From Planctomycetota bacterium (GTDB lineage: Bacteria > Planctomycetota > UBA1135 > UBA2386): a stretch of 64,000 nucleotides of DNA. The position numbers and the translations under genes are program-made. Below the pieces are notes generated by a model. That model had not been told where the DNA came from. It did no database searches and saw only the letters and a program-made list of their open reading frames with translations. Positions 11,643 to 19,536 of this stretch are shown here, piece after piece. The DNA lies in the NCBI GenBank assembly GCA_965223545.1, contig OZ245006.1:2144001-2208000 (forward strand). Reading direction: 5' to 3'. How positions within the stretch are numbered: the stretch's first letter is position 1; every line of letters starts with the position of its first letter.

Positions 11643-14600
11643 ATGGCGCCCATGTTCCCAAGGCCCCCCTCGTTACGAGCCTCTCTCTACGGGTTGTCGG
11701 TCGCGTTCGCCGCAGCCGCGCCAACGAGTTCGCAGACCCACACGCTCGACATCGCAGTCCGCACTGGAGCGACGTTCAGCTCGATCGACGCGCAGGTTGC
11801 GGTCAACGATCAGCGCACCATCGCGTTCACCGGCGCGGATGCCAAAGGCAACGGTGTGTTCGCGATGCCCGACCAGGGACAACCAAGAGCCCTCGCGCCA
11901 CAGGCCAGCAGCCGCAACTACTCGGCTGCCGCGATCAACGACACCCTGGTTCCTGAGGTCACCACGCGCGAACGCGCTTCGGGAGCGCCGCCGGTGTACT
12001 TCTTCCGTCGCTGGAGCACTTCCGGGCTGACCGCGACCATCGTCGGGCGTTCGCCCGGAGATTTCGACTCGGCCGTGTCTCGCCTCGACATCAACAACCG
12101 CTCGACGGTCGTTGGAGTCGCACTCGTCGGGGGTCTTTCGTCGACCGCACTCGTCGCCGGATCGGCGTCTCCTCCGACTCGGCTAGCGACCTACTCCGGC
12201 CTGCAGCAGCTGTGGCCGCAGATCTCCGACGACGACGTGGTGGTGGTCACCGATCCGCAGTCGCGGGTCGTCACCTGGCCGTATCCCACGGGGACCGGCG
12301 AAGTCTTTGCCAGCCCAGGGAGCGGCTTCTCCTCGGTCGGAGTGAAGCCCGGCATCAGCGATGACGGGAGCACCGTCGCTTACATCGGCGACAAGGGCGC
12401 GGGCTCGGGGATCTTCATCGGGCTGCGCGGCATGGGAGCCTCCTACCAGTTGCTGGTCGCTGGCGCCGGCACCGAGAACTTCACCGCCATCGACGGCAAC
12501 CACCGCGCAGGAGTCACCGCATCCGGCTCTCTCAGCACGGGCAAGTGGGTCATGCTCGCGTTCCATGGAACGCGCAGCGGCAAGAGCGGGGTGTACTTCG
12601 CACAGCTGCGAGTTCGCGACGTGTCGGGCACGCTGATGGTCGACCGCAAGTCGATCACCGAGATCGCGACGATCAGCACCGCGGTCGGCGGCGCCAACCT
12701 GACCTACGTCGATCTACATCACCCGATCAACGACCGCGGGGACGTCTGCTGTTTCGCCAGCCTCGATGACGGCTCGTCGGCGATCCTGTTGGCCCGCCGC
12801 ACCACGACCGAGATCCGCGACGCCGTGGACTTCGTCGACCCCGCGACGCTGACCGTGTACAGCTCGCCACAGAAGCTCGACGGCGAAGACGGCCAAGAAC
12901 GGATCGGCGTAGCCGCCGATGGCGCTGCACAGCTGTTGTTGCGCGCCACCGTGCCGGGGCCCGGCACGGTGACGTTCAAGTTCGCCGAGCCTAGCGCCAG
13001 CGGGCAAGGCGAGCTGGCTGCGCCCGGCAGTGCGTTCGGCACCGGTGCGGTCACCGCCGCCGCGACGAACGCGAATCCCACCGGCAACTACCGCGGCTAT
13101 TGCCTGTATCGGGGGCCCGCCGACTTCGTCCGGCCGGCGACCAACGACGACGGCGAGGCAACCCGAGCTGTCCCCATCGACGTCGAGTTCCAACCCACGG
13201 CGGGACCGACTACCGGAGACCGCGTCGAGATCGAGCTCTGCCGCCCACCCGTGGTCCTGGCGCACGGGCTGTGGTCCGATGCCGCGACCTGGAAGGGGTC
13301 GTTCGCCGCTCTGCAATCCGGCAGCGAGCCGCGCTTCTTCAGCCATGCAATCGATTACAGCGGCCCACTCGCATCGGCGCCGTTCTCGGCGAACGTGCCG
13401 ACCGTCCGGCTCGGCATTCAGATTGCGCGCAAACTCGCGCACGATGCCGGATTCGCCGCATCCCAGGTCGACTGGGTCGGGCACAGCATGGGCGGTGTGC
13501 TGCCACGCGTCTACTACGAGCGCGCTGCACGCAACGTCGGGGTCGCCTGGAAGAACGCGGCCAACTTCGGCGGCGGTGAGATCCACAAGCTGATCGTGCT
13601 CAACTCGCCGCAGTGGGGCTCACCGTTCGGCAACATGCTGCCCATCGTCACCCAGAATCTCGCGATCAAGGGCTTCGTCCAGGAGTACCTGGAGGGGTAT
13701 GAGGACAATGGAGCCATCGCCAATCTGGCCGAGGGCAGTCCGGCGTATCAATCGATCGGCGCCACTCCGATCCCCACCCACGCACTCGTCGGAGTCGGAG
13801 TGGAGACCCAGATCGCGGGCGCGACGACGACGGTGAATGCTCTGGCCAGGTTTGTGCCACCGCCAACCAGCACGTTTCTGCGGATTGCCGGGCTGTTCGC
13901 GCGCCTGACCAACTCGCTGGTCTACCGCGGCCACCGCCACGACCTGATCGTGCTCGAGAACAGCCAATCCGCGGGCCTCCCCACGAACGCCGTCACGATC
14001 TACAACGGCGGCCTGACCTACCTCCACATGGGCGTCACCAGCAACCAGAGCTACTACGACAAAACCGTCGACCTGTTGCACGCGCCGGTCGCCGGGCCCG
14101 AGTTCGCGCCGCTGCCGGCGCCCAACCTCAATCCCGCGCGTCTGGCGACACCGCCCACCCCCACAGCCACGGCCAACTTGAGCTTCGTGACACCTGCGCT
14201 GGGCGCGACGCTGCAGCCCAACCAATCGGTGACCGTCGAGGTCACACCGACCGGGGGCTTCACCCCGACCTCGGTGGACCTCTTCCTCGGCAGCGACTAC
14301 GCCACCGTGACCTCCCCGCCGTGGCGACACACGTTCACCGTGCCGGCCGAATCGGTGGGCGCGATCGACATCTTGGCGATCGGGGTCGATGCCGGAGGAT
14401 CGCCGGCACTCGCAGGCCCACAGGCGCACGGCATCAACGTCAACGCAACCCTCCAATCAGTGACGGTCGGGCCGCAGGGCACCGCCCTGGTGGAGCCACT
14501 CGAGGAAACCCGGCTCCAAGTCCTCGGCCAGTACTCCGACGGCGTGACGCGCGATCTGACGCGCGCCGCGACCGGCACGACGTACTCGGCCGCGCCAGCC

Positions 14601-15122
14601 GGGATCGTTCGCGTCTCCGCGGATGGACACGTCACCGTGTCCGGCCAAGGCACGGCGACGATCACCGCGTCGAACGCGGGCTTGTCGGGCAACACCGACG
14701 TCGACGTCGCTTTCCCTGCGACGACCGGCTACGGCACGGGAACCGCCGGTGCCGGCGGATTGGTGCCCACCCTCAATGCTCGCGGCGGCCTACCACAACC
14801 CGGCAATCCCGGCTTTCAGCTCGTCTTCGACCGGATCCGCGGCGGCGCACCGGGACAGCTCATCATCGCCGCCCAACCGGCGGACCTGAGCTGGCAGGGT
14901 CTCCGCATCCTGTTCCTACCCATACTGCTGATCAACTTCCCGATGGTCGCGAGCGGGCCGACGGGACAAGCCGGGGCAGGGCAAGTCGTCGTGCCGATCC
15001 CGATCCCCGCACGACCGAGTCTCATCGGCGGCAGCTTCTTCGTGCAGGGCTTCTTCGCCGACGCCGCCGCTGCGCCAGGGCTGTCCCACACGCAAGGACT
15101 CGCCGTCACGATCCAACCCTGA
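11643..15122 (+). CDS. Large secreted protein with alpha/beta-hydrolase (lipase/PGAP1-like) domain and Ig-like domains
   Basis: Signal peptide; VLAHGLWS oxyanion motif; WVGHSMGG nucleophile elbow; Big_2-like segment (GQYSDGVTRDLT..GTATITAS). Confidence 0.8.
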   Translation: MAPMFPRPPSLRASLYGLSVAFAAAAPTSSQTHTLDIAVRTGATFSSIDAQVAVNDQRTIAFTGADAKGNGVFAMPDQGQPRALAPQASSRNYSAAAINDTLVPEVTTRERASGAPPVYFFRRWSTSGLTATIVGRSPGDFDSAVSRLDINNRSTVVGVALVGGLSSTALVAGSASPPTRLATYSGLQQLWPQISDDDVVVVTDPQSRVVTWPYPTGTGEVFASPGSGFSSVGVKPGISDDGSTVAYIGDKGAGSGIFIGLRGMGASYQLLVAGAGTENFTAIDGNHRAGVTASGSLSTGKWVMLAFHGTRSGKSGVYFAQLRVRDVSGTLMVDRKSITEIATISTAVGGANLTYVDLHHPINDRGDVCCFASLDDGSSAILLARRTTTEIRDAVDFVDPATLTVYSSPQKLDGEDGQERIGVAADGAAQLLLRATVPGPGTVTFKFAEPSASGQGELAAPGSAFGTGAVTAAATNANPTGNYRGYCLYRGPADFVRPATNDDGEATRAVPIDVEFQPTAGPTTGDRVEIELCRPPVVLAHGLWSDAATWKGSFAALQSGSEPRFFSHAIDYSGPLASAPFSANVPTVRLGIQIARKLAHDAGFAASQVDWVGHSMGGVLPRVYYERAARNVGVAWKNAANFGGGEIHKLIVLNSPQWGSPFGNMLPIVTQNLAIKGFVQEYLEGYEDNGAIANLAEGSPAYQSIGATPIPTHALVGVGVETQIAGATTTVNALARFVPPPTSTFLRIAGLFARLTNSLVYRGHRHDLIVLENSQSAGLPTNAVTIYNGGLTYLHMGVTSNQSYYDKTVDLLHAPVAGPEFAPLPAPNLNPARLATPPTPTATANLSFVTPALGATLQPNQSVTVEVTPTGGFTPTSVDLFLGSDYATVTSPPWRHTFTVPAESVGAIDILAIGVDAGGSPALAGPQAHGINVNATLQSVTVGPQGTALVEPLEETRLQVLGQYSDGVTRDLTRAATGTTYSAAPAGIVRVSADGHVTVSGQGTATITASNAGLSGNTDVDVAFPATTGYGTGTAGAGGLVPTLNARGGLPQPGNPGFQLVFDRIRGGAPGQLIIAAQPADLSWQGLRILFLPILLINFPMVASGPTGQAGAGQVVVPIPIPARPSLIGGSFFVQGFFADAAAAPGLSHTQGLAVTIQP

Positions 15123-15175
15123 TGGTACGGAGCCTGGCTCCGTACCTTCGATCCAACCCTGATGGTACGGAGCCT
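15109..15175. repeat. 40-bp-period tandem duplication containing REP-like palindrome GGTACGGAGCC-T-GGCTCCGTACC; second copy interrupted by IS110
   Basis: CGATCCAACCCTGATGGTACGGAGCCTG at 15109 and 15149; intact palindrome 15124-15146; missing half resumes at 16822-16835. Confidence 0.92.
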
Positions 15176-15185
15176 GACCTGAAAC

Positions 15186-16568
15186 TCACCCAGCCTCGAC
15201 GATCGGTATGAGCTTGTACCCGAGGGATTTAGCGTTCTGTCGGAGTCCGACGATGCGTCGCTGGGTGAAGCGCTCCTCGTAGGCCTTGGCGCCTTCGTCT
15301 ACGTAGTCCTGGCCGAACTTCAGCATGCGGTAGATGAGCAGGGCCAGTTTGCGGGCGATGGCAAAGATGGCGACGTTGCCGTCCTTCGCGCGGGCGATCT
15401 TGCGGAAGTGTGCGCCGAGAGCTGTCTGAGTACGTTGGAGGGACAGGGCGGCCATCCGGAGGACCGTGGCGATCCTGCTGACCGCGATGTTGTTGCGGTG
15501 CTTCTTGATGCGCTTTCCACCCGAGACGGCTTGACGTGGGCACAGGCGTAGCCAGGAGACGAAGTGCTTCTCGGTCGGGAAAGCATCGAGGTCGTAGCCG
15601 ACCTCGGTGAGCACGATCATGGCCGTGCTCGGGCTGATACCGTCGATTCGCGTGAGATCACACCCGACGAGCCGGCAGAGGGCATCGCGAAGCTCCCGGC
15701 CGCCCTTCGTTCGGATGCTCCTCTCCTTGCGGGGGTCTGGATGCTCGGGGACGTCGGCCGTCTTGGCTTCCTCCGGTTGCAGGTCCTCGATCATCGCCAT
15801 CAATCGCTTCTCGACCGACTCGATCTCGTGGTCGGTGTGCTCGAGCATCCGCAAGCCCGAAGCGAGAGTGAAGATGTGCTCCTCGATCCAGGTCCCTTGC
15901 AAGTGATCCGCGAGCTCCTTCTCGGAGATCTTGCAGCGCGGATCACGCAGTCTGGCGAGCGCTCGAGGGTCGCGTTCACCAGCGAGAATCGCGCGGATGA
16001 TCGCGAGGCCGGTCTTGCCGGTGATGTCCGTTACCGCGCGATGGATCGCCACGTTCATCTGATCCAGTGACCGCTGCATCAACTGCGTGTGGCGCGTGCG
16101 CTGCGCGATCAAAGACGCGGCATGGCGTTGCAGGGTCCGCAACGCACAGATGTCCTTCGGAGGCCGGAACGAAGCGCGAATGAGGCCATAGGTGTGTAGC
16201 TTCTGCAGCCAACTGCAATCGCTGGCATCGGACTTGGAGCGGCCCGGCACGTTCTTCACCTCGCGGGCATTCGCGAGGATGACCTCGAAGCCTCTCGACT
16301 CGAGTAGCTCGTAGACGGGAATCCAGTAGACATAGGTGCTCTCCATCGCGACGGATCGCACTCCGAGCTCCTCCAGCCAGTCCGCGAGCGCCTCTAGTTG
16401 GGGCGTCGTCGTTCCGAATCGCTTGATCGGACGACTGCCGTCGGGTGCTGCTGCGCACACCCAGTGCTCGCGGCTGCCGATGTCGATTCCGGCGGCGTTG
16501 GGCTTCACGACTGGTAATACTTCCGCTGCGGGCTTCTTGCCCTTCCTCGTTCTGCCCTTCCGAGCCAT
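15186..16568 (-). CDS. IS110 family transposase/recombinase (DEDD + Tnp20 domains)
   Basis: GIDIG, AMEST, KSDASD catalytic motifs; IDGIS..VLTEVG..CPRQAVSGG; AIARKL; AAGGAGG RBS. Confidence 0.95.
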   Translation of the reverse strand: MARKGRTRKGKKPAAEVLPVVKPNAAGIDIGSREHWVCAAAPDGSRPIKRFGTTTPQLEALADWLEELGVRSVAMESTYVYWIPVYELLESRGFEVILANAREVKNVPGRSKSDASDCSWLQKLHTYGLIRASFRPPKDICALRTLQRHAASLIAQRTRHTQLMQRSLDQMNVAIHRAVTDITGKTGLAIIRAILAGERDPRALARLRDPRCKISEKELADHLQGTWIEEHIFTLASGLRMLEHTDHEIESVEKRLMAMIEDLQPEEAKTADVPEHPDPRKERSIRTKGGRELRDALCRLVGCDLTRIDGISPSTAMIVLTEVGYDLDAFPTEKHFVSWLRLCPRQAVSGGKRIKKHRNNIAVSRIATVLRMAALSLQRTQTALGAHFRKIARAKDGNVAIFAIARKLALLIYRMLKFGQDYVDEGAKAYEERFTQRRIVGLRQNAKSLGYKLIPIVEAG

Positions 16569-16819
16569 ACTTCATCCTCCTTGTTGTGGTGGGCCCGGCC
16601 CGAGGCGGCGATCAAACGAATCTGACCTGCGGGAGTGGGCACGGCGACGTGCCCCTCACCAGTGAAGGATGGCCAACTCGGACCCAGACTGGCTCTGGGG
16701 CAAACGTGCTCCAGTGGCTATTGGGGGCGTAGCTGCCGGGCCCCTCACACGTTCCCCGCCCCCTTCCTCAGCGGCTAGTTTCCTGCCCTGAAGGGCCGAC
16801 AAAATCTGTCGGGGCAGGA
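16569..16819 (-). ncRNA. Predicted IS110 bridge/seek RNA region
   Basis: Several hairpins; GAGCCAG (16695-16689) matches target flank plus core; CAGGTCAG (16629-16622) matches the donor end plus core; RNA boundaries unknown. Confidence 0.65.
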
Positions 16820-16833
16820 CTGGCTCCGTACCT

Positions 16834-19536
16834 TCAGAAGGGGCGGTAGAAGACGCGGAGCTCCTGGACCGACACGGATTGGGCCAGGCCGCGGTCGAAC
16901 AGGAGCTGGAAGCGCAGGACGGTGGCGTCGGCGGTGTCCAGCACCACTTCGCCGGCCGGGGCAAAGCCGCCGACATAGCGCAGCCATCCGCTCACGGTCG
17001 TCGGGTCGACGTTGCCGCCGGGGTCGTACTGGGCACCTTGGATCCACAGACGCACGGGCTGACCATCGGTCGCCAACACGCCCACAGTGGGATCGTCGCT
17101 GTAGGTGATCGGCACGCCATCGACGATCGCGTCCAGCTCGTAGCGCAAGAACTCCGGCGGGAACAGCTGCTGCGTGCCGATCCAGAGCGACTGCGATGCG
17201 ACGACGGGATCGCGGTCGACGAGCCCGGCGATGCTGGTGCCCGGGCCACTCGCCGGCGTCACGCTCCCGATCAACGACGCCGCGCCGCCGCCGGCGACCT
17301 CGACGCGCACCTGACCGCGACCGCCCGCTCCCCCGCGCGCCTCCATCGTGGCCGCCGGCGGGCCGAACGTCGTGCCCGCCGACCCGCCGGCGACGTCCAA
17401 CCCACCGTCCTGGTCGATGCGTTGGCCCACTTGCAACAGGATGCTGCCGCCCGAGCCGCCGCCGCCGGGCACCGCGTAGGCGTTGGTCGGCGCCAACACG
17501 CCGGCCATGCCGGTGGTGGAACCGCCGGAGGCGTCGATGGCACCCGTATCCGACACGCTCAGATCGCGGCCCGCGCGCACCGCGACCGCGCCGCCCCCGG
17601 CGGCACCACCGCCGCCCGACCGCCAGGAAACCAACGCCGCGATCGAGAAGAACGGGTGGCCGCCCGCGCCGCCGCCGCCCGCCCCGCCGACCACGAAGTG
17701 GTCCAACGAGCTCGACCCCGCCGGCCGCGGCAACAAAGAGAACTCGCGGCCGGCACGCCCGTCGGGGCCGGCTTCGGCCGGGTCGCCGTTGTGGGTCGCG
17801 ACGACCGTGCCGGCCTCTCCGGGCGCCATGAGCGCGCCCCCACCCCCACCCGCCGCGACCTGCGACGAGTACAACCCCGCCACCTGCGTGGTGACCACCG
17901 ACGCGTTGCGTCCATCGGCGGGAAACAACGCAGAACCCCGTCCGCCGCTGCCCGCGGCGCGCGCCGCATAGGCGTGGCCGGCCGACAAGACCGCGTCCCG
18001 CCCCCTCTCGCCGGAGAAGCGCGGCAGGGCGCCGAGTCCGTTGCATCGATCCGCGCCGGCCCCACCGCGTGCGCTCCCGGCCGCCCCACCCGCGGCGCCG
18101 CCATCGGCACCGGGCTGCCCGGTGACGGAGTCGCCGTCCGGCATCGGCCGCCCGACGCCCGACAGGTCCAGCACGCCGTCGATGACGGCGTTGCCGCTGA
18201 CCGAGATGCGCGCCGGGTGGGCTCCCACGAAGCGCACCGTCGTGCCCGCGCCGATGTGGAACTGGGAGAAACGGTAAACGCCATCGGTCACGCGCAGGTC
18301 GGTGCCGGTGCGCGTGCGAACGCGGGAGATCAGCGAGTCCTCGGTGTTCCACTCGTAGACCCCCGGCGCGATTTCGGTGCCGTCGGCCGGGTCGAACACG
18401 CCGTGGATCGCGTCGCCGCCAATGGCACCGGGCAGGGCTTCACCGTTGGCCCAGACCCCGGAAGACGCCCGGTGGTCCAGCTGCAAGTCGTTGTCGAAGG
18501 TCTCGACCAGCGCCACCTCCGCGCGCTGGGAGGGCGCCGTGACGAAGGAGAACACTTTCTCAGCGGCGGGCTTGCCGGACAGATCGACGACGCGCGGCGT
18601 CACCCGGACTTCGACACAGAGCCCACCGGGGACTTCCGAGTCGGGCCGGAAGCTGCCGACCGTCAGCTGACGCAAGGGGTCGTTGAACAGGTCCCAAGTG
18701 CCGGGCACCACGACGGGCGCCGAGGCCGGGTCGCACTGCACACCGCCGCCCGGGGCCGGGCGAGTGTCGCGCACCGTGACCGCCACCGGCTGCGCGCGGT
18801 TGCTCGACGTGATGAACGGAGCCTGGTCGATCACCTCGGAAAACTCGAGCACGATCGGGGTCAGCGGATCGACGCCGGTCGCCAACACCGGCGACAGCAG
18901 CTCGGCACTCGGCGGCTGGCCGTCGAAATCGACGACGCCAAGGGTGACGCTCAACGAGCACCGATAGTCCTCGAGCAACGGATCGCCCGCCGTCGAGCGC
19001 AAGACGCCGACCTGATTGCCGCCACGCACGTAGAGCTGATAGGTCTCCGCCGGACGAAAGCCGAAGAAGCTCTGGGAACCCACGACGCGGATCTCGGGCA
19101 CGAACATCACCGTCGGGCCATTGGTCAGCAACTGACCCACCGGCTCCTCACCGGTCGTCGTGCGCAGCGAAACCGTCGCCGACGACACCGTCGCGGGATC
19201 GACATCCTGACTGAACACCAGCACGATCGGCTGGTTCTGCGCAATCTGGTTGATGCCGCATCCGGCCTGCGTGCAGCCCAGGTTGCACGACTGCAAACAC
19301 AGAGCCGGCCCCGCGGCCGAGGGGGCCGTGCACGACGACTGCAACACCGGTCCAGCACTGCCGCCGCCAGAGCACCCGACACCACCGAGCGCCATCGTGA
19401 CTCCGAGGAGCCCGGCCAAGGAGCGGCCGGCCCGAAGGGCAGGGCGGGACTCGACCACGCGATCAGGGGAGCGCTCGGGCATGAGAACCTGGGACCGGAT
19501 CGGCACCATCGCCAAGGAGGCGAGCACCGGAGACAT
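16834..19536 (-). CDS. Large exported (probable lipo)protein with Ig-like (Big_5-type) domains and glycine-rich region
   Basis: LGGVGC lipobox-like; IVLVFSQDVDPATV and IVLEFSEVID Ig-like motifs; GGGGSGGSILL repeats; start uncertain. Confidence 0.7.
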   Translation of the reverse strand: MSPVLASLAMVPIRSQVLMPERSPDRVVESRPALRAGRSLAGLLGVTMALGGVGCSGGGSAGPVLQSSCTAPSAAGPALCLQSCNLGCTQAGCGINQIAQNQPIVLVFSQDVDPATVSSATVSLRTTTGEEPVGQLLTNGPTVMFVPEIRVVGSQSFFGFRPAETYQLYVRGGNQVGVLRSTAGDPLLEDYRCSLSVTLGVVDFDGQPPSAELLSPVLATGVDPLTPIVLEFSEVIDQAPFITSSNRAQPVAVTVRDTRPAPGGGVQCDPASAPVVVPGTWDLFNDPLRQLTVGSFRPDSEVPGGLCVEVRVTPRVVDLSGKPAAEKVFSFVTAPSQRAEVALVETFDNDLQLDHRASSGVWANGEALPGAIGGDAIHGVFDPADGTEIAPGVYEWNTEDSLISRVRTRTGTDLRVTDGVYRFSQFHIGAGTTVRFVGAHPARISVSGNAVIDGVLDLSGVGRPMPDGDSVTGQPGADGGAAGGAAGSARGGAGADRCNGLGALPRFSGERGRDAVLSAGHAYAARAAGSGGRGSALFPADGRNASVVTTQVAGLYSSQVAAGGGGGALMAPGEAGTVVATHNGDPAEAGPDGRAGREFSLLPRPAGSSSLDHFVVGGAGGGGAGGHPFFSIAALVSWRSGGGGAAGGGAVAVRAGRDLSVSDTGAIDASGGSTTGMAGVLAPTNAYAVPGGGGSGGSILLQVGQRIDQDGGLDVAGGSAGTTFGPPAATMEARGGAGGRGQVRVEVAGGGAASLIGSVTPASGPGTSIAGLVDRDPVVASQSLWIGTQQLFPPEFLRYELDAIVDGVPITYSDDPTVGVLATDGQPVRLWIQGAQYDPGGNVDPTTVSGWLRYVGGFAPAGEVVLDTADATVLRFQLLFDRGLAQSVSVQELRVFYRPF

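Follow-up and report, generated by a model that had tools for sequence, protein, structure and literature searches.

An IS110-family element at the center of a REP-like palindrome

We analyzed a window of 64,000 nt from a Planctomycetota bacterium (assembly GCA_965223545.1, contig OZ245006.1, positions 2,144,001 to 2,208,000; "the window" denotes this whole stretch) and focused on an IS110-family insertion sequence at 15174 to 16822 on the minus strand. Positions are those of the window, and sequences are read on the minus strand unless stated otherwise. The element measures 1,649 bp including a CAG at both ends and comprises a 460-amino-acid recombinase gene (15186 to 16568), a noncoding stretch of 251 nt from the left CAG to the start codon, and 12 nt beyond the stop codon. 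The noncoding left end contains a predicted structured RNA of 168 nt (16580 to 16747). The evidence presented below makes it very probable that this is a recently active element that chooses its landing site by means of a bridge (seek) RNA from its 250-nt left end.

The genome (8.1 Mb, two contigs) carries 23 full copies of the element, 17 of 1,648 bp and 6 of 1,649 bp, and its boundaries could be fixed because 23 different flanks were compared. At the left junction, the flank ...GGTACGGAGC is followed by CAG at 16820 to 16822 and then by the element (junction text at 16831 to 16806, ...TTCTGAAGGTACGGAGC-CAG-TCCTGCCCC...). At the right junction, the element end ...AGTTTCAGGT-CAG at 15174 to 15176 runs into GCTCCGTACC (junction text at 15187 to 15164, ...GAGTTTCAGGT-CAG-GCTCCGTACC...). 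Terminal inverted repeats are absent; besides the CAG shared by both junctions there is only a subterminal inverted repeat, with GAAACT (16777 to 16782) pairing with AGTTTC (15181 to 15186). The repeat is 6 bp long in this element and 8 to 9 bp in several relatives, and it covaries (GTTAC/GTAAC in the relatives L031 and L038). Its left half lies about 40 nt from the element tip. A GC-rich left-end hairpin, CCGACA...TGTCGG (16796 to 16812), recurs at the same place with other sequence in relatives. The 23 copies fall into six sequence types with 12 variable positions in total, none of them in the guides described below, and the 460-amino-acid open reading frame (ORF) is intact in every copy. 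Taking near-identical copies and intact ORFs as a proxy for activity, the element looks recently active.

Nearly all copies share one landing site. In 22 of the 23, the insertion is at GTACGGAGC-CAG-GCTCC, the center of a repeated palindrome of the repetitive extragenic palindrome (REP) type; GGAGC precedes the left CAG in all 23 copies, and GCTCC follows the right CAG in 22. The exception to the GCTCC right arm is a copy beside a 120-bp local duplication with a second copy. The central base of the palindrome is fixed as A, not T, in element orientation (23/23). In the window, the left target arm GTACGGAGC plus CAG occupies 16820 to 16831 and the right target arm, GCTCCGTACC..., occupies 15157 to 15173. 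An intact 40-bp REP-like unit containing GGAGCCAGGCTCC, an empty target, lies at 15109 to 15148, with a CAG placed exactly 40 bp away from the one at the right end of the element. An initial annotation of this DNA, made from the letters alone, had placed the element at the center of a REP-like palindrome, with CAG at both ends and an intact target copy 40 bp away, and had named insertion of other copies at unrelated sequences as an outcome that would count against it. All three observations hold, and 22 of the 23 copies in this genome share the site.

The recombinase belongs to the IS110 family

The encoded protein matches Pfam PF01548 (DEDD_Tnp_IS110; residues 26 to 171, E = 1.3e-26), the N-terminal RuvC-like DEDD domain, and PF02371 (Transposase_20; residues 305 to 383, E = 6.3e-14), the C-terminal Tnp domain with the catalytic serine. 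The NCBIfam model NF033542, "IS110 family RNA-guided transposase," scored 248 bits (cutoff, 140), and the only PDB matches were IS621 (E = 7.5e-11) and ISCro4. Comparison with named reference proteins (IS621, ISCro4, and IS4321) was pairwise: identity to IS621 was approximately 25%, local to two short stretches, with both domains represented in the alignment, and similarity to IS4321 was confined to the C-terminal domain (27% over 127 amino acids, E = 3e-6). Residues D29, E76, D114, and D117 align with D11, E60, D102, and D105 of IS621, and S349 (...AVSGG) aligns with the IS621 serine (...YESGS), which is S241 in PMC11208158. IS621 residue numbers follow passages of that paper where it names them, the chain offset being 2. 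With both domains and five catalytic residues aligned, the protein is a member of the IS110 family as judged from its sequence, in agreement with the initial annotation, which further described it as a candidate programmable recombinase; such a candidate it remains.

A covarying two-loop RNA is predicted upstream of the gene

To place the noncoding end in a comparative context, related loci were collected from genome contigs (75) and metagenome contigs (80), and a covariance model, R1, was built from a hand-checked alignment of 10 upstream regions. R1 matched 48 among the first 75 loci and 82 among 98 sources, in all cases upstream of the ORF and on the gene strand. Within the present genome it matched 23 times, once per element; at the locus studied here, the match at 16580 to 16747 scored 156 bits. 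In the 10-sequence hand alignment, 92.4% of cells were standard-paired and 15 of 37 pairs showed compensatory changes; in the 82 model-aligned matches, the values were 94.3% and 32 of 37. Controls in which pairing partners were slid by 1 to 3 columns reached at most 54.6% in the hand alignment and at most 55.8% in the 82 matches. A covariance model of the noncoding end had been proposed as a check on the initial annotation, and the model that was built supports a two-loop structure.

The predicted fold is a three-way junction. A closing stem, P1, pairs 16735 to 16744 with 16591 to 16599 and encloses two similar modules, a target module (16682 to 16728) and a donor module (16600 to 16681), each with a stem that leads through an internal loop to an inner hairpin. 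In the target loop, this hairpin (16697 to 16712) is paired in 100% of cells and almost invariant in sequence, and that of the donor loop (16631 to 16660, GGGCACG/CGTGCCC plus its base) has compensatory changes in 10 of 12 pairs. Three hairpins had been named in the initial annotation; CCGACA/TGTCGG and GGGCACG/CGTGCCC are kept in relatives, whereas CCCAGA/TCTGGG is not. A minimum free energy fold (z = -2.5) that places GAGCCAG within this last hairpin was rejected, since relatives lack the hairpin; the covariation-supported fold pairs GCCC (16725 to 16728) with GGGT (16682 to 16685). A pairing of the donor guide with GGCC (16673 to 16676), suggested by RNAalifold, was also rejected because it is broken in one relative (L036). 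A scan of 15000 to 17000 against Rfam returned one sub-threshold chance match and no bridge-RNA family.

Two guides covary with the target and the element end

Across all aligned RNAs, the first loop has (C/G)N-NNNNN-AG-NN on its 3′ side, ahead of the closing GGG, and the second loop has NNNNN-AG-A on its 3′ side. In this element, the first loop carries GAGCCAG at 16689 to 16695, identical to the last 5 nt of the left flank plus AG and extending to GAGCCAGTC; with the TC at 16687 to 16688, in a handshake-like position, the putative target guide spans 16687 to 16695. The second loop carries CAGGTCAG at 16622 to 16629. Within it, AGGTCAG (16622 to 16628), the putative donor guide, repeats the final 5 nt of the right end together with AG, which make up the last 7 nt of the element (15174 to 15180).

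For each RNA, the target 7-mer (5 nt plus AG) was sought in the 150 nt upstream of that RNA, and the second-loop 7-mer was located just downstream of the stop codon. Exact target 7-mers were present in 28 of 43 cognate flanks versus 15 of 1,594 noncognate pairs in the first set, and in 49/70 versus 20/4,761 in the enlarged set. The donor 7-mer was found at the cognate right end in 23 of 27 cases (noncognate, 9 of 643) and, after enlargement, in 58 of 68 (noncognate, 58 of 3,415). Guide and flank change together (GAGCC here, GTGCC in L025, GCTCT in L034, and AAACA in L033), as do guide and element end (AGGTC here, TGGTT in L028, ACACT in L036, and CTAGC in L038). Both guides had been proposed in the initial annotation, the second as a donor-left guide, together with a test of whether 16689 to 16695 covaries with targets and 16622 to 16629 with donor ends; the coordinates were exact, and both segments covary across relatives. 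Two relatives depart from the pattern at the right tip. In L030 (locus 2540 to 2600), the last 7 nt match the element's own left-target 7-mer rather than the donor guide, and in L031 (locus ~1640 to 1660), the tip reads ...TGGCCAC where the guide predicts ...TGGCCAG.

Since the nucleotide preceding AG in relatives may be T, A, G, or C (TAG, AAG, GAG, or CAG), the shared core is AG and the C belongs to the guide-read arms. The AG core corresponds to CT when the gene-antisense strand is read, and C precedes it in CAG by coincidence; the AG/CAG core proposed earlier is therefore kept as to AG and dropped as to C. Cores taken from the gene strand can mislead in this way, since AG here is the usual CT when the opposite strand is read. 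Immediately after AG, the target guide has the nucleotide with which the element begins in 42 of 48 distinct cases, versus 47.5% for noncognate pairs. The second nucleotide after AG shows no such agreement (15 of 48 versus 23%).

The 3′-side guides suggest an inverted site

Both confirmed guides lie on the 3′ sides of their loops, and in all relatives the segment that repeats the left flank is found on that side. The 3′-side target segment is gene-sense left flank and so would pair with the antisense strand, which carries CT at the core. Passages of PMC11208158 describe a different assignment for IS621: the 5′ side of the loop holds the left target guide (nt 50 to 58), whose partner is the bottom strand, and the 3′ side holds the right target guide (nt 77 to 80), whose A79-G80 faces the CT core. 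The right target guide has the top strand as its partner, and two handshake nucleotides, 81 and 82, come after it. By position, the two guides reported here would correspond to the right-target and right-donor guides of IS621, and the complex would be built as in IS621 with the site turned round relative to the RNA and the gene. For seekRNAs of the IS1111 type, passages of PMC11187229 place the top-strand complement 5′ of the bottom-strand match, with the order reversed in ISEc21, an IS110-type element. The same order was read by eye in IS4321 on R751, where a 7-nt segment that matches the left junction in the same sense has an 8-nt right-flank complement on its 5′ side. In those members of the present family that have a top-strand complement (L040 and its relatives, an acidobacterial clade), the complement is likewise on the 5′ side of the loop: the target-loop 5′ side is complementary to core plus right flank over 8 contiguous nt in L040 and 6 in L046. 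With the left-flank match on the 3′ side throughout and the right-flank complement on the 5′ side in this clade, the family has the IS1111 order in an IS110-type upstream RNA.

A near-palindromic target invites the objection that the RNA works exactly like those of IS621 and ISEc21 and that the palindrome makes the assignment look reversed. The 5′ sides of the loops would then read the left arm on its bottom strand and the 3′ sides the right arm on its top strand, with GGAGC or the loop 5′ side serving as a second target guide. The element's own target does lend itself to this, GAGCC(A/T)GGCTC being almost the same on both strands, and the target-loop 5′ side, CCAATAGCCACT (16713 to 16724, ending CACT like the donor-loop 5′ side), offers AGC(C), its only segment able to pair with the right arm, for the right-arm GCT. 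However, in relatives whose targets are not palindromic, the 3′-side guide equals the left flank and not the complement of the right flank, and these asymmetric targets contradict such a reading. The central A, fixed in all 23 copies, matches the guide as assigned here. GGAGC (16708 to 16712), which the initial annotation had considered as a possible guide for the other target strand, forms the 5′ strand of the target module's inner hairpin and belongs to a nearly invariant CAYTGGWGC; it stays unchanged where targets change and is thus a structural stem rather than a guide. We regard an IS621-like assignment as very unlikely.

Taken together, these results suggest the following working model. 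The 3′ side of the target module, GAGCC-AG, would pair with the left target arm and core through their gene-antisense strand, with the nucleotide after the guide matching the first element nucleotide in a handshake-like manner; the 3′ side of the donor module, AGGTC-AG, would pair with the same strand of the element's right tip and core. The guide-paired strand would read 5′-CT-3′ at the core, as in IS621, and the RNA-bound recombinase would bring the circle junction into synapsis with GGAGC-CAG-GCTCC, strand exchange taking place at the AG/CT core. Expression of the element, formation of a circle, and the capacity to be programmed are predicted from covariation and from membership in the family. 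Since sequence comparison sets its target, its donor, its core, and two guides, the element is a natural candidate RNA-guided recombinase that is ready to test, and the guides of its relatives are, in effect, already naturally reprogrammed.

Several observations weigh against a bridge RNA acting in this way. A scan of the linear element found no sigma-70-like promoter, no circle-junction word was present in the assembly, and contigs of four sequencing runs compared with 15100 to 16900 contained no circle-junction joint. The alignment of 82 matches was fitted to R1 and is thus biased toward the structure, and the relatives are nonindependent samples. The RNA is predicted from DNA comparison, and so are its transcription, ends, and processing. 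Nucleotides after AG in the donor loop do not track the right flank (19 of 57 versus 23%). The target-loop 5′ side showed no enrichment of matches, in either sense, to the left or right flank or to the left or right end, and three copies in the genome of one relative have unrelated right flanks; with no general complementarity between the 5′ side and the right flank, a two-sided reading of the target is supported only in the acidobacterial clade (L040, 8/8).

The guide alone does not account for the restriction to REP sites

GAGCCAG occurs 1,969 times in the genome (both strands), close to the ~1,906 expected from composition; GCTCC comes next at 86 of these, the empty REP-type sites, and 23 belong to left junctions. 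All 23 insertions have the REP-type left arm and 22 the right arm too, so that approximately 22 of ~108 REP-type sites are occupied versus none of ~1,860 other GAGCCAG sites. Because most GAGCCAG sequences lie outside REPs yet the insertions are at REPs, the 7-mer alone cannot explain site choice. Three further bases (GAGCCAGGCT, 104 sites) would nearly suffice. The AGC(C) on the target-loop 5′ side is available for the GCT of the right arm, with no comparative support. The restriction may come from such a 3- to 4-nt pairing or from the structure of the palindrome; by analogy, a structural gate like the target stem-loop of ISPpu10 may be an alternative account. Palindromic or hairpin targets are frequent among relatives. 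For the host, these counts describe one REP family, of about 108 sites, that is being colonized, with 22 sites filled.

The same shortfall could be taken to mean that the protein or a cruciform provides the specificity for REPs, with the RNA a leader or regulatory element and the short matches by-products of repeated insertion. Besides the REP-only distribution that the 7-mer leaves unexplained, the target stem-loop of ISPpu10, described as an added determinant in passages of bioRxiv 10.64898/2026.03.19.712850, speaks for a role of this kind. Against this, guides change with flanks and ends in dozens of relatives with unrelated targets, the family model that the protein matches is named for RNA-guided transposases, and published passages show that homologues need the RNA. 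We therefore consider it extremely improbable that the RNA has no part in choosing the site.

The donor-loop 5′ side and an internal left-end box share their sequence

The initial annotation could not assign a right-donor guide. No such guide was found beside the core; instead, the donor-loop 5′ side, CCATCCTTCACT (16661 to 16672, reading ..ATCCTTCA-CT), matches in the same sense an internal left-end box, CCCTTCA (16789 to 16795). The box is 27 to 33 nt inside the left end, directly after the GC hairpin at 16796 to 16812 and 6 nt before the left repeat half. A common substring of at least 7 nt between the loop side and left-end positions 15 to 60 was present in 41% of 66 cognate pairs versus 0.7% of noncognate pairs. 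The reverse-complement control showed no enrichment (0% cognate versus 0.4%), which excludes RNA-RNA pairing between loop and box copies. At left-end positions 19 to 31, same-sense matches of at least 6 nt occurred in 21 of 38 distinct loop types, representing at least 19 different boxes. In the acidobacterial clade, only the box flanks agree with the loop.

Comparison across relatives revealed no RNA segment that tracks the first left-end nucleotides. On the 3′ side of the donor guide, a variable stretch complements the left-end start over at least 5 nt in 17% of cases versus 3.7% of noncognate ones, and in L032, L113, L137/L038, and L154 it is complementary to the first 3 to 6 left-end nt, sometimes followed by CT. 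This stretch was not adopted as a canonical left-tip donor guide, the relatives concerned being few and the tabulation of matches inconsistent; it may be a remnant or an alternative of one.

Loop and box have the same sense, which would allow the RNA to pair with the box on its antisense DNA strand, the strand with which the donor guide would also pair. The subterminal repeat halves bracket both donor sites, the box and the right tip. When the junction is modeled for 22 relatives, the repeat stem closes the minimum-energy DNA fold of that strand in 14 of them; a like fold is expected for the opposite strand, and the junction fold therefore does not pick a strand. We favor an additional RNA-DNA contact on the same DNA strand as the most likely meaning of the loop/box identity. 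No such relation was found in the main-text passages of the literature that were searched. If functional, it would change donor design for the clade and bear on the question of duplex versus single-stranded IS110 donors.

A credible, if not preferred, competitor is that loop and box are alike without any pairing of RNA to DNA, either as a shared protein surface or because the box acts as an RNA mimic or alternative fold in a longer transcript. Box flanks are conserved (ATC..TCA in the element's own clade, and TTC...GAT in the acidobacterial clade, with centers that do not always match), and transcription from the junction, described for IS621 in passages of PMC11208158, would put the box in the RNA. 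The published IS621 structures, moreover, offer no precedent for both sides of a donor-binding loop contacting one DNA strand. Nevertheless, at least 19 different boxes, each matched by its own RNA, are typical of base pairing or templating and not of a fixed protein motif, and the control above leaves no room for pairing between two RNA copies.

The favored RNA-DNA contact could be carried further, to a third RNA-guided IS110 architecture whose donor would be recognized through a single DNA strand, at the right tip plus core and at a left-end box 20 to 30 nt inside; we hold this tentatively and think it rather unlikely on present evidence. The donor-loop 3′ side would pair with right tip and core, and the 5′ side would pair with the box on the same CT-carrying strand. 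The two sites, separated by the GC hairpin and bracketed by the subterminal repeat, would suit a folded single-stranded or cruciform donor. Copy-out and single-strand transfer have recently been claimed for IS110 elements (passages of bioRxiv 10.1101/2025.10.25.684509), and one-strand donor reading would fit those claims rather than the duplex donor seen for IS621.

The layout combines features of two described types

We compared the element with IS621 and ISCro4 as described in passages of PMC11208160 and PMC11208158, and with the IS1111 group (ISEc11, ISKpn4, ISPa11, and IS4321) as described in passages of PMC11187229. Like IS621 and ISCro4, it has a DEDD plus Ser recombinase with both Pfam domains and an RNA encoded in a long left end upstream of the gene. 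That RNA forms two pseudo-symmetric loops, each with an inner hairpin. A 3′-side guide ending in AG would pair with the CT core and be followed by a handshake nucleotide, the 5′ sides of the loops end in C/U-U, and the targets are of the REP type. It differs from IS621 in protein length (460 versus 326 amino acids) and in its low local identity of ~25%. Relative to both elements as those passages describe them, a common closing stem surrounds both loops here, giving a three-way junction. The 3′-side guides would pair with the gene-antisense strand of the left flank and right tip, the site would be inverted relative to RNA and gene, and the guide arms are 5 + 2 nt. No guide was found for core-adjacent DNA on the left-end side, the donor-loop 5′ side matches an internal left-end box, and the subterminal repeat is 6 to 9 bp in this family versus 2 to 3 bp.

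With the IS1111 group, the element shares the presence of a subterminal inverted repeat (its length and placement are compared below), a 7-nt terminal extension beyond the repeat at one end, and strand order, the full order being seen in the acidobacterial clade and the 3′-side left-flank match in all relatives. Unlike in that group, the RNA is upstream of the gene rather than downstream, where only 12 nt follow the stop codon. The repeat is 6 to 9 bp versus 11 to 13 bp, and the left extension is approximately 40 nt, with hairpin and box, versus 3 to 7 nt. Of the features used to define the IS110 group in its narrow sense (IS621/ISEc21 type), the long noncoding region upstream of the gene is present, and a bottom-strand match 5′ of the top-strand match is absent. 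Measured against the 7 to 17 bp that define the IS1111 repeat, the repeat is 6 bp here and 8 to 9 bp in relatives, with the left half ~40 nt from the tip, where the IS1111 left-end extension is given as 3 to 7 nt (PMC11187229). Rare IS1111 relatives with an upstream noncoding region, such as ISMtsp17, appear in the same passages. Thus, the position of the noncoding region, which has been used to split the IS110 from the IS1111 group, is uncoupled here from the order of strand matches.

ISPpu10 also targets one REP family, and base pairing alone is insufficient for its site choice (passages of bioRxiv 10.64898/2026.03.19.712850). Its stem-loop "gate," however, is a 5′ extension beside the left target, and its core is CT in the gene-sense frame; in the present element, the core is in the loop position at the exact center of the palindrome, and a comparable GC hairpin is in the donor left end. 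As far as sequence comparison goes, the layout differs from both described types in combining an upstream RNA with the IS1111 order, a three-way junction, a subterminal repeat beyond which the left end extends by 40 nt, and a box-copying loop.

Relatives and genomic surroundings

In several relatives (L129, L107, L108/L109, L053, L154, L028, L135, L130, and L136), the target guide is the same 7-mer as the one at the right tip of a sibling element. These copies have GTTTC + 5 nt + AG directly upstream and lie head to tail behind the sibling. Two of the loci contain two RNAs each (42 to 216 and 1690 to 1856 in L130; 505 to 668 and 2148 to 2312 in L136), and in L136 each neighbor's target guide agrees, exactly or nearly, with the right tip of the other. 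From these sequences, family members appear to aim at each other's ends and form tandem arrays. Protein relatives of 42 to 46% identity are carried on plasmids of cultured bacteria (61 Citrobacter records, Bradyrhizobium, Paraburkholderia, and others). A Citrobacter copy (L181, CP132326.1, 107301 to 109996) has GAAAC/GTTTC motifs near its ends. For the enterobacterial plasmid relatives (43% identity), R1 found nothing upstream of the Citrobacter copy or in R751, and by eye the RNA is too diverged to read.

No orthologous empty site was found among the 20 relatives examined, all of which are from other genera and lack the locus. In the window, the element lies between two convergent genes, a plus-strand ORF at 11643 to 15122 and a minus-strand ORF at 16834 to 19536, the latter of which stops 2 nt short of the REP. 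The local target (15109 to 15173 and 16823 to 16834) is the second unit of a 40-bp tandem duplication, each unit of which includes the REP and the last 14 to 15 nt, stop codon among them, of the plus-strand ORF. Elsewhere in the genome (G000:C1:4826228-4829693), a pair of directly oriented copies is separated by 170 bp; the first lacks the GCTCC right arm, and the 120 bp upstream of it recur upstream of the second, which looks like a local duplication or rearrangement involving the element. A lone 114-bp fragment (element positions 272 to 385, 96% identical) is located at G000:C1:988112-988225, remote from the full copies.

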